Shown here: positions 4,302 to 61,871 of the stretch, one piece after another | How the letters are laid out: each line of letters opens with the position of its first letter | Position numbering within the stretch: the first letter of the stretch is position 1 | Origin: Octopus vulgaris | Taxonomy: Eukaryota | Assembly: GCA_951406725.2 (NCBI GenBank) | Contig: OX597830.1 | Location: 10,788,001-10,852,000, forward strand | Length of the DNA: 64,000 bases | Direction: 5' to 3' | Translations under genes and position numbers: made by a program | The notes under the pieces: model-generated | Databases searched by the model: none | The model's input: only the letters and a program-made list of their open reading frames with translations | Told to the model about the DNA's origin: nothing

Positions 4302-4384
4302 TATATATATATAAATTTTTTTTTTCCCCGTAATGAGATAAAAAACCAAGGCTGTGTAGATTTTAGAACATTTATAAATAGAAG

Positions 4385-4432
4385 GTCTTACAGCTGTTTC
4401 TAGGATATCCATTATATCCCTTCATCAGAGAC
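4385..4432 (-). ncRNA. Type I hammerhead ribozyme
   Basis: RC: GTCT-CTGATGA-A-GGGATAT-aatgg-ATATCCT-A-GAAAC-AGCT-GT-A-AGAC. Confidence 0.75.
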
Positions 4433-4502
4433 GGTGTAAGAAGATATTTAAGCAATAGTTATCTTATCTAAATTAACTATTGCTTAACCATCTTCTCACA
4501 CC

Positions 4503-4554
4503 GTCTCTGATGAAGGGATATAATTAATTAATATCCTAGAAACAGCTGTAAGAC
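4503..4554 (+). ncRNA. Type I hammerhead ribozyme
   Basis: GTCT-CTGATGA-A-GGGATAT-aattaatta-ATATCCT-A-GAAAC-AGCT-GT-A-AGAC; stem III palindrome ACAGCTGT. Confidence 0.75.
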
Positions 4555-4773
4555 CTTCTATCTATAAATGTTCTAAAATCTACACAGCCTTGGTTTCTTA
4601 TCTCATTACAGAAAAAATTTTTTATATATACGCATGCTGATATAAGACCTATGTTGGCCCCTTATTTGCATAATCACCGAACCTGGAACTCAACTATGGT
4701 CTATCCATAGAACTTATTCAGCATTACCTGACCCCTTTGGGTCTCAATAACACCATTACCTCTCATAACCTTA

Positions 4774-5417: not shown

Positions 5418-5658
5418 CGTGCAAAAATGATGGAGCAATGACCTTTTCCACCCATTGCTTTCCCACATAACCCTGAACTGTAGAAGTATAAGTAACACTG
5501 AAATTTTGCTTTATTTTCTTTTTGTAGTTTACTTTATATCTTTTTGTATCGTCCTGCTTTATACAACAAATCTATTTAAAGAAATACACACACACACACA
5601 TATACTGACATGTATGCACATAGGCATACAGACATGAATGAATATCTATCTATCCATC

Positions 5659-5711
<53 letters not shown>

Positions 5712-5989
5712 TTAATAAGGGTGAGAGAATTAGATACTAATTTAATAGTATATTTATTCAACACCAAGTGGCCTAGTGCTACGAGAAACCTGGATTACTA
5801 TAATATTTTATAACATATTACAATATTTTTACAAAATAAATATAAGAGAGTGGTCACTATATTGCTCACTCTAGCACCAGTTAATCCAAAAGGTTTCAAC
5901 CACGAAAATACATGTTTCCCATGAAAGTCAGTACGACTGTTAGCTCACACGGACAGGGCAAATAAAAAATAACAAAAATACAGATTATT

Positions 5990-6066
5990 TTGGGACAATT
6001 GTTTCGCTATTAATGAATTAAATGTAATATTACTTACAAAAAATCCATTTGTAGCTCGTCAGCCAA
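5990..6066 (-). ncRNA. Type I hammerhead ribozyme (array unit 1)
   Basis: RC: TTGG-CTGACGA-GCTA...TAGC-GAAAC-AATT-GTC-CCAA; canonical core with GUC site. Confidence 0.85.
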
Positions 6067-6523
6067 GACTATCTGGATGAAATCCACTCAATCACACGCC
6101 AGATTTTACCATAACGATAAATACGCGTGTGGTTCAATTGATTACATCCGACGTTATAATTCAAATGCCCCAACCAACAGCGCGCCAAACTCTCACGGAA
6201 AACAAATACAGCATTTAGAAATAAATGCAGCATAATTATAATTAATTAATAAGGGTGAGAGAATTAGATACTAATTTAATAGTATATTTATTCAACACCA
6301 AGTGGCCTAGTGCTACGAGAAACCTGGATTACTATAATATTTTATAACATATTACAATATTTTTACAAAATAAATATAAGAGAGTGGTCACTATATTGCT
6401 CACTCTAGCACCAGTTAATCCAAAAGGTTTCAACCACGAAAATACATGTTTCCCATGAAAGTCAGTACGACTGTTAGCTCACACGGACAGGGCAAATAAA
6501 AAATAACAAAAATACAGATTATT

Positions 6524-6601
6524 TTGGGACAATTGTTTCGCTATTAATGAATTAAATGTAATATTACTTACAAAAAAATCCATTTGTAGCTCGTCAGCCA
6601 A
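6524..6601 (-). ncRNA. Type I hammerhead ribozyme (array unit 2)
   Basis: As unit 1, with one extra base in the stem II insert. Confidence 0.85.
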
Positions 6602-7044
6602 GACTATCTGGATGAAATCCACTCAATCACACGCCAGATTTTACCATAACGATAAATACGCGTGTGGTTCAATTGATTACATCCGACGTTATAATTCAAA
6701 TGCCCCAACCAACAGCGCGCCAAACTCTCACGGAAAACAAATACAGCATTTAGAAATAAATGCAGCATAATTATAATTAATTAATAAGGGTGAGAGAATT
6801 AGATACTAATTTAATAGTATATTTATTCAACACCAAGTGGCCTAGTGCTACGAGAAACCTGGATTACTATAATATTTTATAACATATTACAATATTTTTA
6901 CAAAATAAATATAAGAGAGTGGTCACTATATTGCTCACTCTAGCACCAGTTAATCCAAAAGGTTTCAACCACGAAAATACATTATAGTAATCCAGGTTTC
7001 TCGTAGCACTAGGCCACTTGGTGTTGAATAAATATACTATTAAA

Positions 7045-7431
7045 TCTCTCTCTATATAAACGGCAGTTTGTCTGTGCGTTTTCTGTGTGTCTGTTTTCTC
7101 GTACCCTCACTCTGACCACGGCTTTCAACCGATTCTGATGAAACTTGACACACACATAGCCCAATGTCATAATTCAAAACTAACGCAGCGAAAATTTTGA
7201 AAAGTTCCCCCAGTTCTGAAAAAAGTCGATAAATTCGACATGGGGTCGAGAATCAGAAACCCAAACCACAGACCGTCTAGAGGACGCAACTCCACCTTTT
7301 TTAACTCTCAAAAAAAAATTTACCATCATTTTTTTTTTCCATTTTTTTGCTATTTTTTGGCTATAACTCTCTAAAAATGCTTTATAGTTATTTCCCTTAC
7401 AAACCTGAGCAACGCCGGGCGATACTGCTAG
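7045..7431 (+). mobile_element. Non-autonomous Helitron
   Basis: 5' TC, 3' hairpin CCTGAGCAACGCCGGG then CTAG; inserted between A and T of ATTAAA|TTAGTATCT with no TSD (empty site visible at 7961-7975). Confidence 0.9.
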
Positions 7432-7639
7432 TTAGTATCTAATTCTCTCACCCTTATTAATTAATTATAATTATGCTGCATTTATTTCTAAATGCTGTAT
7501 TTGTTTTCCGTGAGAGTTTGGCGCGCTGTTGGTTGGGGCATTTGAATTATAACGTCGGATGTAATCAATTGAACCACACGCGTATTTATCGTTATGGTAA
7601 AATCTGGCGTGTGATTGAGTGGATTTCATCCAGATAGTC

Positions 7640-7717
7640 TTGGCTGACGAGCTACAAATGGATTTTTTTGTAAGTAATATTACATTTAATTCATTAATAG
7701 CGAAACAATTGTCCCAA
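7640..7717 (+). ncRNA. Type I hammerhead ribozyme (inverted arm, inner)
   Basis: TTGG-CTGACGA-GCTA...TAGC-GAAAC-AATT-GTC-CCAA; predicted cleavage after C7713; distal stem I helix CAGAT/ATCTG. Confidence 0.85.
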
Positions 7718-8174
7718 AATAATCTGTATTTTTGTTATTTTTTATTTGCCCTGTCCGTGTGAGCTAACAGTCGTACTGACTTTCATGGGAAACATGTATT
7801 TTCGTGGTTGAAACCTTTTGGATTAACTGGTGCTAGAGTGAGCAATATAGTGACCACTCTCTTATATTTATTTTGTAAAAATATTGTAATATGTTATAAA
7901 ATATTATAGTAATCCAGGTTTCTCGTAGCACTAGGCCACTTGGTGTTGAATAAATATACTATTAAATTAGTATCTAATTCTCTCACCCTTATTAATTAAT
8001 TATAATTATGCTGCATTTATTTCTAAATGCTGTATTTGTTTTCCGTGAGAGTTTGGCGCGCTGTTGGTTGGGGCATTTGAATTATAACGTCGGATGTAAT
8101 CAATTGAACCACACGCGTATTTATCGTTATGGTAAAATCTGGCGTGTGATTGAGTGGATTTCATCCAGATAGTC

Positions 8175-8251
8175 TTGGCTGACGAGCTACAAATGGATTT
8201 TTTGTAAGTAATATTACATTTAATTCGTTAATAGAGAAACAATTGTCCCAA
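8175..8251 (+). ncRNA. Type I hammerhead ribozyme (inverted arm, outer; stem II closing pair broken)
   Basis: Same motif, but TAGC-GAAAC is changed to TAGA-GAAAC at 8235. Confidence 0.75.
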
Positions 8252-8402
8252 AATAATCTGTATTTTTGTTATTTTTTATTTGCCCTGTCCGTGTGAGCTA
8301 ACAGTCGTACTGACTTTCATGGGAAACATGTATTTTCGTGGTTGAAACCTTTTGGATTAACTGGTGCTAGAGTGAGCAATATAGTGACCACTCTCTTATA
8401 TT

Positions 8403-8448
<46 letters not shown>

Positions 8449-8554
8449 ATGCTCATACTTTTCTTTAATATTGTTAAATATCATCAATTATTTATAAAGT
8501 ATAGTGTAATTAGAACGTCTTCATCTATGTTGTAAATTTATTTTATGATATTGA

Positions 8555-20849: not shown

Positions 20850-21363
20850 TCTATATATCTATATATATAAAACTCTAGTTGTGTGAGTGTCTGTCCCCTT
20901 CGATTTAGATTCCTAACTCCTCCCACATTTTGCGGTGCAGTTTAACCAAATTCGGGTATCTTATAGTCGTGATTCATATCGAGCCTGTCTGACTATTAGC
21001 GCGCGTCAACGATGAGTCTATGATTTTAAAAATAATTTAACATCATTTTTTATTCCATTTTAATGCATAAAATGCATCGTATGTCGATGGCGGCGGAGTT
21101 GGCGTCCACGCTCACAGCTGCACCTGTTTGCTTCTCCCCCTTCCCTCCCTCGTGAAGCTGTGGGGAAGGGAGTGTAAAGAAATCAACGTCGTAATGCGTT
21201 GTGAAGGAAACCAGCGTTCTTTTAGAACAACGACTTCATGGCTTGAAGACACCAAAACAAAAATGGCTAAGAAAGCCCGAATTTATAAGGGAAGTAACTC
21301 TCTAAAAATGCTTATATAGTTAATACCCTTACAAACCCGAGCAACGCCGGGCGATACTGCTAG
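20850..21363 (+). mobile_element. Non-autonomous Helitron
   Basis: 5' TCTATATAT..AAAACT; 3' CCCGAGCAACGCCGGGCGATACTGCTAG|T. Confidence 0.85.
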
Positions 21364-21364
21364 T

Positions 21365-21660
21365 TATGTATAAAACTAAAGTTGTGTGTCTGTCTCCTAC
21401 GATTTAGATTCCAAACTACTCCCACATTTTGCGGTGCAGTTTAACCAAAACCGTGTATCTTATAGTCGTGATTCATATCGAGCCCTTCTGGGTATTAACA
21501 TGCGTCTACAATGAGTCTATGATTTTAAAAAAATTTACCATCATTTTTCCGCATTTTTAATGCATTTTTTGCTCGGTTTATATAAGGGAAGTAACTATAT
21601 AAAAATGTTTATATAGATATTTCCCTTACAAACCTGAGCAACGCCGGGCGATACTGCTAG
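21365..21660 (+). mobile_element. Non-autonomous Helitron, shorter tandem relative
   Basis: Same 5' block (CGATTTAGATTCC..TCCCACATTTTGCGGTGCAG) and the same 3' hairpin plus CTAG|T. Confidence 0.85.
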
Positions 21661-21835
21661 TGTATATATATATATATATATATATACAATAAAAGCAATT
21701 AAGATTCAAGTCAATTCCAATGAATTTACTTGAATATGGTACTTAACTTAGATGCACCAGAAAACTATATGGTGTCAACCATACAGTAATGTGGGGTGAT
21801 TATAAACGAGAAAGAAGCAACAAGAATGGATTAGT

Positions 21836-21926
21836 TTTTAGTACAATTGTTTCATACAAAGACAGGCTTTATTAAAAGTTGCAAAAATTGCAGCAGATAA
21901 AAGTGTCCCGTACTCATCAGCTAAAA
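21836..21926 (-). ncRNA. Type I hammerhead ribozyme
   Basis: RC: TTTTAG-CTGATGA-GTAC...GTAT-GAAAC-AATT-GT-A-CTAAAA. Confidence 0.8.
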
Positions 21927-22232
21927 TACATATGAGTTCTCCAAACATCTTAGTGGGTGAGGCTATACTCATGAAGTATTGGGGATAATTTCATTAAAAG
22001 CAGATTTAGGTTGTAAACAGATTTCCGAAGTTCCTTAATGATGATGCACAGTCTTATCACAGGTTTTTAAAAAATGATGATAAGACTGTGATAAACCTGT
22101 GATAAGACTGTGCATCATCATTAAGGAACTTCGGAAATCTGTTTACAACCTAAATCTGCTTTTAATGAAATTATCCCCAATACTTCATGAGTATAGCCTC
22201 ACCCACTAAGATGTTTGGAGAACTCATATGTA

Positions 22233-22323
22233 TTTTAGCTGATGAGTACTGGACACTTTTATCTGCTGCAATTTTTGCAACTTTTAATAAAGCCTGTTTT
22301 TGTATGAAACAATTGTACTAAAA
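22233..22323 (+). ncRNA. Type I hammerhead ribozyme
   Basis: TTTTAG-CTGATGA-GTAC...GTAT-GAAAC-AATT-GT-A-CTAAAA; 6-bp stem I, palindromic stem III. Confidence 0.8.
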
Positions 22324-22351
22324 ACTAATCCATTCTTGTTGCTTCTTTCTC

Positions 22352-22387
<36 letters not shown>

Positions 22388-26011: not shown

Positions 26012-26095
<84 letters not shown>

Positions 26096-26173
26096 CAGAT
26101 GAATATGGTACTTAAGTTGTGGCACCAGGATTTAGTATGGTATTATCCATACAAATTCAAAGTAAGGTGATTA

Positions 26174-26250
26174 AAATCAAAATAAGCAACAAGGATATCC
26201 AGAGATAATGCAGATATACTTCTGGATATCCTTGTTGCATATTTTGATTT
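26174..26250. repeat. Short fold-back in a truncated relative of the 21.7-kb element
   Basis: AAATCAAAATAAGCAACAAGGATATCCAGA / TCTGGATATCCTTGTTGCATATTTTGATTT; 26100-26195 resembles 21731-21830. Confidence 0.75.
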
Positions 26251-32887: not shown

Positions 32888-33636
32888 ACACACACAGATA
32901 CTTATGTGTATGTGCATGTGTGTGATTCTGTGTACATTTATGTGTATGTGTGTGCCCGTGTTTATTATTTAGTATGTGGAGGAAATTATGCTATTATCTC
33001 CTGTAATCATAGTCATGTGTGAGTGAAAGATGTTCTTTTAGTTTTGTTCTTCTGTTCCCTCAAGTGCTCTGTGTTAAACAAGATATTTCCTCATGCCATA
33101 TGTTTTGCTTATACTCCCCAAAATGCAAACAGTCTGAGAGTATCTTCTGGTTTTATCATGTTCTCATCGCTATGTTTGTCTATTTACTCAACAAAGAACA
33201 CATCTTTGTTCCAATTTTCAGATCAGATAGAGAAAAGTGAGAGGTTAACAATTCATAAAATACACATCTTTGTTCCAATTCTTTTCAGATCAGATAGAGA
33301 AAATGGTGAGAGGTTCTGAAAAATCGTAAATTGACATGGGGTCGAGAATCAGAAACACAAAACAATTCATAAAATATTTTGCCATTTTCTGCGAGAGGAT
33401 TATAATTACAGGTTTTTAGATATTAATATGGTAAACAGTTATATAATATAAGTGTGTGAAAAAGATAGACGATGGTTGAGGATTTGAGGCTGAAAGACTC
33501 CAGTTCATGAGATGGCAGCTTACACTACAAGACTAAATTCTACAACCACCACTGTATATCCAACACCCTTAGAAAGTTGTGATGTTGTTCTGGCCTTTTA
33601 GGACAATATTATTTCATAAATAATATTACTGTTGCA

Positions 33637-36599: not shown

Positions 36600-36735
36600 G
36601 TGTGTGGGTGTTTATATAAATATATAGAAATGTATGTATCAAGATGTGTGTATAATGTACAAAAAAAAGTAGTCTGGTGAGAGAGAAATATTATTTAAAG
36701 GGCACAATTTTTTAGTTCGTTAGGATTTGTGGTTT

Positions 36736-36791
36736 GTGCCTGATGAATGTATTTGAGGTATTTTTCAACATATGAAAATAATTCCAAGCAC
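36736..36791 (+). ncRNA. Decayed hammerhead (relative of 61313-61365)
   Basis: GTGC-CTGATGA-ATGT...ACATAT-GAAA-ATAATTCCAA-GCAC; stem III and cleavage site degraded. Confidence 0.45.
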
Positions 36792-36957
36792 TTAAAGACA
36801 TGGAATGTGTCCTTCAAATAAATAATGTGTGTGTGTGTATGTATATATCTATAGATATGTATGTATATATCTATGTATATATCGAAATCAGACCGCCATG
36901 TTGATTCGTTAGTTCCTGCATGCATTTTTTTTCTCTCTGTGTTTCTTTTCTGTGTAT

Positions 36958-40447: not shown

Positions 40448-41702
40448 CAAGGGTTGGACAAAATAATGGAAACACCTAGCATCATAGCATCATAATTTTG
40501 AAATATCTATAAAACTGTCAAGTTTGTTTACTTGTACGTTTTTTGATTTATTATTAGTGTTGCTTAATATGTTTTGCTAAAATTGCTGTTTCTTTTCAGA
40601 TATCATCAGAAAAAGTTAATTAAAATTCATTAAAATGACACATCTATCGGACTTTCAAAGAGGTAAAATTGTTGGTACTCATATGGCAGATGCTAGCGTA
40701 ATGAAAACAGCCGAAATGTTTGGTGTATCAAGAAGTACTGTCTCAAAAGTAATGACAGTCTTTAAGAAAAGGGAAAAACCAACTCTTTAAAACAAAACAT
40801 CTGGAAGAAGACTAAAACTTTCAGATAGGGACCATCGGACTCTTACGTAAATTGCTAGAAAGGATCACATAAGTACAGCTCCCACAATTACTGCAGACCT
40901 TAATGACCACCTTGAGAACCAGTTTCCACAAAAATTGTTTGCCAGGAGCTGCACAAAGCATGATTTCATGGAAGGGCTGCAATCAGAAAACCACTACTTT
41001 CAAAAACAAACATTGCAAAGTGTTTAGAATTGGTCCCTAGAGCAGTGGAAGAATATTATTTTCTCAGACGAGTCATTCTTTACCCTATTTTCGACCACTG
41101 GCCAAGTATACATGTGGAGACAGCCAAAAGAAGCATTTGACCCAGACTGCCTTCTTCCAACTGTTAAACATGGAGGAAGTTCTGTGATGATCAGGGGCGG
41201 GGGCTACATCTTGGAAATCCTCCAGCCCAATGGTTTCCCTTCATGGCAGAATGAATAGTCAAGACTATTTAAGCATTTTATCTGATCAAATTTATCCTAT
41301 GGTTGCGGAACTGCTTCCAGAGGGAAACGCAATCTTTCTGGATGATAATGCACCAATTCACACAACTAAGGTTGTTACTGAATGGCACGAGAAACATTCT
41401 AGTGAAGTTGAACATCATATCTGGCCACCACAGTCCCCAGATCTCAATATTATTGAACATTTATGGTGCATTTTAGAAAAAACAAGTAAGGAGTCGATAT
41501 CCTCCACCATCATCACAACAAGAACAGTAGACTGCTTTAGCTGAAGAATGGACAAAAATTCCTTTGGAATCATTTCAAACTTTGTACAAGTCCATACCTC
41601 ATAGAATTCAAGCTGTAATTACTGCCAAAGGTGGTTCTACCCCTTATTAAAATAAATTTGTTTGAAATTTTAAGGTGTTTACATTATTTTGTCCAACCCC
41701 TG
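40448..41702 (+). mobile_element. Tc1-family DNA transposon, full length, decayed
   Basis: TIRs CAAGGGTTGGACAAAATAATGGAAACACCT / AGGTGTTTACATTATTTTGTCCAACCCCTG; TA TSD. Confidence 0.95.
40635..41650 (+). pseudogene. Tc1 DDE transposase pseudogene
   Basis: MTHLSDFQRGKIVG..., FSDES, TVKHGG, DDNAPIH, WPPQSPDLNIIEHLW, ...AKGGSTPY*; broken by frameshifts and stops. Confidence 0.92.
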
Positions 41703-55202: not shown

Positions 55203-55451
55203 TATTGTTATATTTCGGAATGGTAATATTGCCAGTTTAGCCAATAAAAACACACACACTATATATTTGGTGTTATTTTGCTTCAGTGTTATTTATTTTT
55301 TACATTAATCTTAATCTTATTAATCTGGCCGAAATAAGATTAAGATTAATGTAAAAATAAATAACACTGAAGCAAAGTAACACCAAATATATAGTGCGTG
55401 TGTTTTTATTGGCTAAACTGGCAAAATGCACCATTCCGAAATATAACAATA
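55203..55451. repeat. Fold-back inverted repeat (about 118-bp arms)
   Basis: TATTGTTATATTTCGGAATGG...TTAATCTTATT / AATAAGATTAA...CCATTCCGAAATATAACAATA. Confidence 0.9.
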
Positions 55452-61187: not shown

Positions 61188-61312
61188 CATGCATATATAT
61201 ATATATATATATATGATGTACTGATCCATGATAGAAAATTCAACAAAAAAAAGTACTCCATCTGGTGAGAGATGAATATTATTTATTTAAAGGACACAAT
61301 GCATGTCTTTAA

Positions 61313-61365
61313 GTGCTACTAATAGTTTCATATGTTGAGAGAACTCAAACATGTTCTTCAGGTGC
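61313..61365 (-). ncRNA. Type I hammerhead in an old fold-back element
   Basis: RC: GCAC-CTGAAGA-ACATG...CATAT-GAAAC-TATTA-GT-A-GCAC (stem I probably a CpG-decayed GCGC/GCGC); the inverted arm at about 61400-61492 lacks the CTGA core. Confidence 0.6.
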
Positions 61366-61630
61366 AAACCACATATCATAACGAAGTAAAGAAAATGACT
61401 TTAGTTCGTTATGATATGTGGCTTCTGTTTGAGTTTTCTCAACTTATGAAACGATTAGTAGTGCTTTAATACATGTACTGTGACATTTAAACATATATAT
61501 ATAGATAGATACATAGATAGATAGATAGATATATAATAATAATAATTTGAGAATATTATTCCAAACATACAGGGAAAAATTCAATTTAGAAATACTAAAT
61601 CAAATTTCACAAAATATAATATATATATCT

Positions 61631-61829
61631 AAATATAAATTAGAAAAAAACCACCTTTTATCAATTCAAAATGAAAAATTAAATTACACCATCTAGAAAA
61701 TTACATATAATAGAAATCGGTATATTTTTTATATTACATTTAATATTTCTATTATATGTAATTTTCTAGATGGTGTAAATTAATTTTTCATTTTGAATTG
61801 ATCAAAGGTGGGTTTTTCTAATTTATATT

Positions 61830-61830
<1 letters not shown>
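61631..61830. repeat. Fold-back inverted repeat (about 87-bp arms)
   Basis: 61631-61717 vs 61745-61830, next to (TA)n. Confidence 0.9.

Positions 61831-61871
<41 letters not shown>

Follow-up and report, generated by a model that had tools for sequence, protein, structure and literature searches.

Insertions of Penelope-like elements have been described as partial tandem copies accompanied by an inverted, 5'-truncated copy, often within microsatellites, and the available text of that description (PMC8557442) also reports a tail offset of 30-40 nt and calls the origin of the tandem and inverted repeats undefined. In the accessible part of PMC3846280, the inverted pLTRs are shorter than their partners, self-priming is inferred, and head-to-head arms are said to need an antisense template. 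The hammerhead motifs of this group vary widely within genomes, and their minimal form has a short helix I, a large helix II with a G-C pair at its base, and a small palindromic helix III (PMC4209133, as far as its text is available). For the retrozymes, a unit of about 150-450 bp is given (PMC7229834, accessible text), a typical range with no strict limit, and the available part of a preprint (10.64898/2026.07.22.740005) defines the non-LTR retrozymes by two or more tandem hammerhead units. In insertions of R2, snap-back of the cDNA before formation of the 5' junction is a named class of junction (PMC11371274 and PMC11204384, accessible sections).

The locus described here (Table 1) lies in a 64-kb stretch of DNA, which we call the window and which gives the impression of an animal genome rich in repeats. 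It resembles insertions of endonuclease-bearing Penelope-like elements in its head-to-head 5' fusion, its partial tandems and the hammerhead within the repeat, and further in its (TA)n target without a readable target duplication and its unequal arms, to the extent that these are described in the available parts of PMC8557442 and PMC3846280. It differs from them in lacking an ORF, in having arms that are each built from multiple copies of a non-coding unit, and in its offset of 130 nt versus 30-40 nt. With the animal non-LTR retrozymes of PMC7229834 and 10.64898/2026.07.22.740005 it shares a low-GC tandem array, one type I hammerhead per unit, the absence of an ORF and a self-paired monomer, whereas its unit is longer, and cleavage and circular RNA are here predictions from the sequence. 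We found no mention of an inverted multimeric retrozyme arm in the accessible text of these two sources. As in the snap-back described for R2 in PMC11371274 and PMC11204384, the 3' end of the cDNA would prime on itself and join the target, so that the 5' junction would carry an antisense copy. For R2, a site-specific non-LTR element, the available text describes transgenes in human cells, whereas the present case belongs to a natural genome and has a copied arm of about 1 kb, which is 81% of the cDNA. The locus is best viewed as a probable R2-like snap-back working in a Penelope layout, and not as an autonomous Penelope element. Twin priming of LINE-1 normally inverts a different upstream part of the RNA, with no duplication of the same part. 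The inverted 5' part, the microhomology joint and the placement of both outer ends on the target are features in common with it (10.1101/2024.12.14.628481, available text). Because a tandem template makes the outcomes of twin priming and of duplication look alike, priming on both target strands stays a rival of the snap-back.

Table 1. Positions of the features in the window (locus 1 unless stated otherwise).
Feature	Position	Strand	Remark
(TA)n tract, left half of target microsatellite	5659..5706		4-nt overlap with element end, 5703-5706
Left array unit 1, outer, 534 bp	5703..6236	-	Hammerhead sense is the minus strand
Outer 130 bp of left array	5703..5832	-	Without mirror partner in right arm
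Left array unit 2, inner, 535 bp	6237..6771	-	Differs from unit 1 by an extra A only
Left array partial unit 3, 211 bp	6772..6982	-	Putative 3' end of first-strand cDNA
Loop between arms, 107 nt	6874..6980		Plain unit-3 sequence
Inversion junction	6974..6982	+	
Right arm, first part	6981..7044	+	Exact reverse complement of the end of 5833-6873
Non-autonomous Helitron-like insert, 387 bp	7045..7431	+	TC start, CTAG end, between A and T, no duplication
Right arm, main part	7432..8408	+	Reverse complement of 5833-6809
(TA)n tract, right half of target	8408..8443		1-nt overlap with element end
Type I hammerhead motif, left outer	5994..6062	-	A6 run in stem II, 6038-6043
Type I hammerhead motif, left inner	6528..6597	-	A7 run in stem II, 6572-6578
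Type I hammerhead motif, right inner	7644..7713	+	T7 run in stem II, 7663-7669
Type I hammerhead motif, right outer	8179..8247	+	T6 run in stem II, 8198-8203; private substitutions 8227, 8235
Locus 2, head-to-head hammerhead palindrome, other family	21688..22353		Between TA tracts
Locus 3, older head-to-head hammerhead palindrome, third family	4304..4630		TA-rich ends; arms 87% alike
Degenerate palindrome with hammerhead-like remnants	61276..61502		Remnants seen by eye, failed motif scan; loop 7 nt, arms 74%

The left array is 1280 nt long, corresponding to 2.39 units of 534/535 bp, and ends 81 nt before the expected third cleavage site. When the Helitron-like insert is removed, the right arm and its partner (5833-6873) are both 1041 nt long and align as reverse complements with no gap. 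Two substitutions separate them (6006/8235 and 6014/8227), both private to the outer right copy, and the arms are 99.8% identical in mirror register. The direct units are as alike as the mirror partners, 0 substitutions being found over 746 bp. The inverted repeat itself far exceeds what chance would give. The two arms had been described as equal in length; the lengths hold, but the equality is a product of how the left arm was defined, as the array starts at 5703 and not at 5833. The left side is longer by 130 bases on the outside and by the loop on the inside, all of it plain element sequence, and the 107-nt spacer, correctly located in the original prediction, contains no foreign DNA. TA tracts flank the inverted repeat on both outer sides, and there is none at its centre. 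In the left arm the hammerhead motif is read from the minus strand, in the right arm from the plus strand. If the hammerhead strand is taken as sense, which is how we define the head of an arm, the arms are joined head-to-head and their 3' ends lie in (TA)n.

All four hammerhead copies at 5703-8408 passed a scan for the type I motif, made with a core pattern that we take to be the accepted one. They have a 4-bp helix I that can be extended past an internal loop, a long helix II and a helix III of two pairs that carries a palindromic loop. This fits the minimal form of the Penelope type, and the basal G-C pair of helix II is intact in every copy except the outer right one, where the substitution at 8235 breaks it. 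An extra nucleotide between core position 9 and helix II is present at locus 3 and absent at loci 1 and 2. Three of these copies were folded with the hammerhead imposed as a constraint and reached -15.8 to -19.7 kcal/mol, which is higher than the unconstrained fold by about 5 kcal/mol. The stretch of RNA from one cleavage site to the next is much more strongly folded than its shuffled versions (z -7.3, equalled by 0 of 100). Rfam gave no hammerhead match in the 64-kb window at the gathering score and, at E values up to 10, no hammerhead family among nine matches in 5600-8500 or 22 matches at locus 3. The reason may lie in the long stem II and the minimal stem III. The Rfam matches of miRNA type were all below the gathering score and merely reflect hairpins, and we rejected them.

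The array contains two or more units in direct succession, each of them bearing a complete type I hammerhead motif, in keeping with the definition of a non-LTR retrozyme in the available text of 10.64898/2026.07.22.740005. The GC content is 0.34 over 6001-8000, below the 45% limit applied to retrozymes. With regard to coding capacity, the searched frames of the retrozyme region gave no Pfam match. In the whole window, the longest 145 of the 205 complex frames (at least 60 aa; those searched were of 70 aa and more) gave no Pfam match to a reverse transcriptase, a GIY-YIG domain or a Rep/helicase. We rejected an autonomous Penelope-like element on the count of 0 reverse transcriptase or GIY-YIG matches in these frames. 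The window holds no second copy of the locus-1 family, and an exact-pattern scan of prokaryotic genomes returned 0 matches to the element. From its sequence, the element appears to be a non-coding, non-autonomous tandem repeat that agrees with the working definition of a non-LTR retrozyme except for the unit of 534/535 bp, which exceeds 150-450 bp. It is of the kind mobilised by Penelope-like elements, and the insertion is young.

At the inversion junction, positions 6981-6982 pair with 6872-6873 and, past a 2-nt bulge, 6974-6978 pair with 6874-6878, which gives an interrupted microhomology of 7 nt. An overlap of AT alone had been reported there; the 2-nt overlap is present, but the five paired bases past the bulge extend it. 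Under a scoring rule that was chosen after the junction had been inspected, the score was equalled by 0.19% of 355,160 pairs of ends and sites and by 8 of the 1257 sites for this end, and site 6872 ties with 6892 for the best microhomology within 300 nt. The rarity of equal scores suggests that the joint was guided by pairing. In equilibrium DNA folding, the 3' base of the putative cDNA was paired with a probability of 0.055, position 6872 was outside its top five partners, and forcing the pairing with 6872 cost 3.7 kcal/mol. The junction is not a stable hairpin and would have to be held by a polymerase able to use a short microhomology. The letters come out the same whether the end pairs in cis or with a second identical cDNA, and the junction therefore cannot separate the two.

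The original prediction was built on the homopolymer in stem II of the hammerhead, whose length follows the order 6, 7, 7, 6 through the four copies. We found this mirror-wise order at the positions claimed. Among the homopolymer runs of at least 5 nt (16 observations across the copies), one of four sites varies, and the other 12 observations are identical. Two longer runs can be arranged among four copies in six orders, two of which are mirror-symmetric, so the indel taken alone is weak evidence. The likelihood ratio for mirror copying over separate copying of a uniform template is 4-100 for slippage rates of 0.5-0.01. The local template amounts to 1171 nt in the mirror register versus 636 and 102 nt in the other registers; the right arm lies wholly inside the left array in the mirror register only, and the indel agrees with that register. 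The mirror grouping of the copies is retained when the arms are aligned, and the two substitutions, which had gone unmentioned, are private and do not regroup the copies.

A single event and not two insertions is indicated by the TA tracts outside but not at the centre, the nearly identical arms, the junction microhomology and the template available only in mirror register. The claim that the right arm was templated and did not arise by an independent insertion is to that extent well supported, but the further claim that the indel shows a snap-back goes too far. The indel argues against separate copying of a uniform template and not against dual priming on a heterogeneous multimeric RNA: priming from two strands on a multimeric RNA with a pre-existing 6/7 difference gives the same mirror pattern, which is accordingly no proof of snap-back. 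A single indel settles neither the mechanism nor the link between retrozymes and Penelope-like elements.

The two substitutions at locus 1 are 8 nt apart (chance about 1.5%), and all four of the arm substitutions at loci 1 and 2 lie in stem II, as the indel does (about 5e-4, a post hoc figure). This clustering could reflect hairpin-linked mutation or an error-prone fill-in, and it could also reflect a second RNA template, given the reported variation of these motifs within genomes. RNA editing was considered for 8227, a stem position at which the hammerhead strand has changed from A to G, and rejected, as it concerns a single site and the other three substitutions are of other types.

The 64 kb gave eight hammerhead matches, every one of them inside one of three head-to-head palindromes, which represent three sequence families, and 40 shuffled sequences gave 0. 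The sibling loci are stronger evidence than the indel of locus 1. The arms of locus 2 (21806-22066 and 22093-22353) differ at two positions and are separated by a spacer of 26 nt, and the left side is longer by about 118 bp, part of this extension being 72% like a relative at 26.1 kb. Within the spacer, 13 nt repeat 22047-22059 in inverted form, and 9 nt that overlap them repeat 22054-22062, likewise inverted. None of 20,000 shuffles reached the 13-nt inverted match in this patch (22078-22094). For a strand ending at 22081, an end point that we chose for the folding, the best partner of the 3' base is 22056, the start of the patch, with a probability of 0.28. The patch reads like the trace of a strand that primed, slipped by 11 nt and primed again within about 40 nt of its end, although it could also be a natural hairpin of the element. 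At locus 3, the loop is 2 nt long according to the aligner and 12 nt by eye, the latter being the value used, and the outer ends lie 65 and 64 nt from the cleavage site, with boundaries that we selected; such equal ends would be expected from a copy that ran to completion, and no less from priming at fixed sites.

Relative to the arms, the three loops (107, 26 and about 12 nt) are short, with a joint chance of about 0.003 under independent truncation, a figure that is rough, post hoc and biased because the loci were found as palindromes, and that is void if both cDNAs stop at a common RNA end. It leaves out two palindromes without a hammerhead core (55203-55451 and 61614-61848) and a short one (26174-26250), for which the values are 0.18, 0.40 and 0.29. 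The outer-end offsets are 130 nt at locus 1 and about 118 nt at locus 2, above the tail of 30-40 nt, as an aborted copy would give; their similarity could also mark a second fixed start site. Whole-unit homology between the families of loci 1 and 2 was tried for placing the canonical end of the element and dropped, as the similarity beyond the hammerhead (108.5) is not above that of shuffled sequences (97 +/- 9).

We consider snap-back of the cDNA, with moderate confidence, to be the most likely origin of the mirror copies. A nick in the TA tract would allow reverse transcription to be primed at 5703 with the help of the 4-nt overlap, and a cDNA of 1280 nt (2.4 units) would be made on an RNA that was circular or multimeric, the 6/7 difference being inherited from the donor or produced by slippage. 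The 3' end of the cDNA at 6982 would then fold back over 107 nt and prime on itself through the 2 + 5 paired bases, while the fold-back would be held by a polymerase, which may be the reverse transcriptase of the element or the host polymerase theta. After 1041 nt had been copied, synthesis would stop 130 nt before the start, and the end would be joined to the other half of the TA tract. The two substitutions and the Helitron-like insert may have been added later or during the fill-in. The junction microhomology, the copied arm that stops short, the sibling palindromes with short loops and the patch at locus 2 support this mechanism better than the indel does. The clustered substitutions in stem II, the weak predicted pairing of the 3' end and the published double-strand priming by a Penelope protein speak against it. 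The idea is not new, as self-priming was proposed for head-to-head Penelope repeats in 2013 (PMC3846280, accessible part). The antisense template of that proposal, which we read as a transcript, is not needed in a cDNA fold-back, since the cDNA is itself antisense. Our search of the accessible literature returned no printed cDNA fold-back for Penelope-like elements or retrozymes other than the self-priming of 2013, and, within the same scope, no inverted retrozyme arrays.

The best-surviving rival, which we regard as unlikely, is that a dimeric protein of the Penelope type cuts both strands of the TA tract, that each strand primes its own cDNA, and that the two 3' ends are joined by microhomology. 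The template would be the same multimeric RNA or a sister RNA, already carrying a unit with the run of 7 upstream of a unit with the run of 6. In vitro, the Poseidon protein of Anolis, a predicted dimer, nicks each of the two strands and extends them; it starts at two sites within the RNA, and its template is for the most part uncleaved RNA (PMC11167929, available text). Both outer ends of locus 1 overlap TA, but the right overlap is of 1 nt only, against 4 nt on the left. The equal outer ends of locus 3 are as predicted for priming at fixed sites on both sides, and a second RNA could have supplied the clustered substitutions; against this, the distance between the stops of the two cDNAs would have to be as small as 107, 26 and about 12 nt at the three loci (with the chance of about 0.003 given above, unless they share a common RNA 5' end), the end offsets of 130 and 118 nt exceed the tail of 30-40 nt, and the repeated priming close to the end at locus 2 is more simply explained in cis.

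It is quite improbable that the inversion or its symmetry came from outside the integration, through fold-back repair of a later break in a simple tandem insertion, gene conversion from arm to arm, or a palindrome inherited from the donor. Fold-back of broken ends with 2-bp microhomology does give inverted duplications near L1 insertions (10.1101/2024.12.14.628481, accessible text), and a locus at 36.7 kb has its flank and one arm in common with the palindrome at 61.3 kb, so that palindromes in this region can be copied within larger units. However, the copied arm at locus 1 carries no flanking DNA and ends in the same TA tract. Gene conversion is further opposed by the direct units, which are as alike as the mirror partners, a likeness for which youth suffices, and by the confinement of the Helitron-like insert and both substitutions to one arm.

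Homopolymer length is a common error in long reads. It is nonetheless very improbable that the 6/7 difference consists of such errors, in spite of a mirror order in two of six random arrangements, because one of four homopolymer sites varies and the 12 other run observations agree. A chimeric fold-back read, as the source of the inversion, would have mirrored the flank and could not have put the Helitron-like insert in one arm, and the arms of the older siblings, 74-87% alike, could not be made by an artefact. Two independent insertions of the family, the second reversed at the 5' end of the first, are scarcely credible. These elements do favour AT-rich targets, their own repeats included (PMC11167929, available text), but the centre holds no TA tract, alignment of the arms in mirror register shows 99.8% identity, and the hammerhead palindromes of the window, without exception, have a head-to-head order and short loops.

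Since no intact hammerhead motif of the window lies outside such a palindrome, fold-back of the cDNA might be the routine finish of Penelope-type insertions in this genome and not a rare accident, although we regard this extension of the snap-back as doubtful. If it were true, each turn of the reverse transcriptase around a circular RNA would be recorded in the tandem arrays, and a slip made in one turn would be preserved in both arms; the head-to-head repeats of Penelope-like elements would be explained without an antisense transcript, and retrozymes would be tied to these elements by mechanism. Neither the layout nor the general idea is new; the fresh points are the finding of a multimeric retrozyme so arranged, the return of the arrangement in several families within a single window, and a test based on a marker, which would be decisive with the whole assembly. 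Young multimeric palindromes with internal variants turn the mechanism into a count on one good assembly: mirrored private variants would point to snap-back, and shared donor haplotypes with fixed ends would point to dual priming. The locus gives structural support to the idea that animal retrozymes ride on the Penelope machinery. Insertions of this kind would scatter long, nearly perfect palindromes in TA tracts, which may be sources of dsRNA and of breakage.

The insert at 7045-7431 was assigned by features that we take to be those of Helitrons, namely a 5' TC, a 3' CTRR and insertion between A and T without duplication. It is present in one arm only and should therefore be later than the inversion. 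A Helitron as the maker of the inversion was rejected, as the arm stays in register across its empty site. Related Helitron 3' ends occur at 21295-21363 and 21527-21660. The subterminal 3' hairpin of the insert folds weakly (z 0.37), and the relative at 21.3 kb has a clearer stem (z -0.72).

At the two young loci of the window, locus 1 (the head-to-head hammerhead tandem insertion) and locus 2, all differences (five of five) fall within helix II of the hammerhead. Locus 2 is a young head-to-head hammerhead palindrome flanked by TA tracts, and its family is distinct from that of locus 1. Its 26-nt spacer contains inverted copies of nearby sequence (13 and 9 nt) that overlap each other and look like products of self-priming that occurred more than once. 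A third hammerhead palindrome, locus 3, has arms that reach equally far and are 87% identical. Its hammerhead has an extra nucleotide, which is a typical feature of Penelope-type minimal hammerheads.

Coordinates of the features in the window
Feature	Location	Position
Helix II, between-arm substitutions	locus 1	8227, 8235
Helix II, between-unit indel	locus 1	6572-6578
Helix II, between-arm substitutions	locus 2	21861/22298, 21909/22250
Motif with small hairpin	locus 1	5874-5902
Motif with small hairpin	locus 2	21754-21781
Motif with small hairpin	26-kb relative	about 26120-26155
Hammerhead palindrome	locus 2	21688-22353
Hammerhead palindrome	locus 3	4304-4630
Old relative of the locus 2 family	26 kb	26094-26250
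Degenerate palindrome		61276-61502
Partial copy	36.7 kb	~36650-36830
Helitron-like family		7045-7431, 21295-21363, 21527-21660, 33313-33364
Palindrome without hammerhead core		55203-55451
Palindrome without hammerhead core		61614-61848
DDE_3 transposase fragment		41191-41541 (+)

Loci 1 and 2 share a short motif that includes a small hairpin and is found 88-120 nt downstream from the cleavage site. It possibly represents a protein-binding site; the match between the two loci is statistically weak (E 1.1). The motif is also present in the 26-kb relative, which is preceded by a (TA)n(AG)n tract and likewise terminates in a short palindrome (17-nt loop); its hammerhead core is no longer present.

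The degenerate palindrome retains remnants of a hammerhead. Its left flank recurs at the 36.7-kb copy, where most of the left arm is missing, as if a palindrome had been deleted within a duplicated segment.

The Helitron-like family has probably been active very recently, because its copy at 7045 is inserted into locus 1, whose arms differ by just 0.2%. The end of another copy directly abuts the TA tract of locus 2.

The palindromes at 55203-55451 and 61614-61848 have no hammerhead core. The former has 95% arm identity and TA at both its start and end, and may be a MITE; the latter lies in (TA)n, with an arm identity of about 86-89%. The transposase fragment matches Pfam PF13358 (E 7.5e-14).
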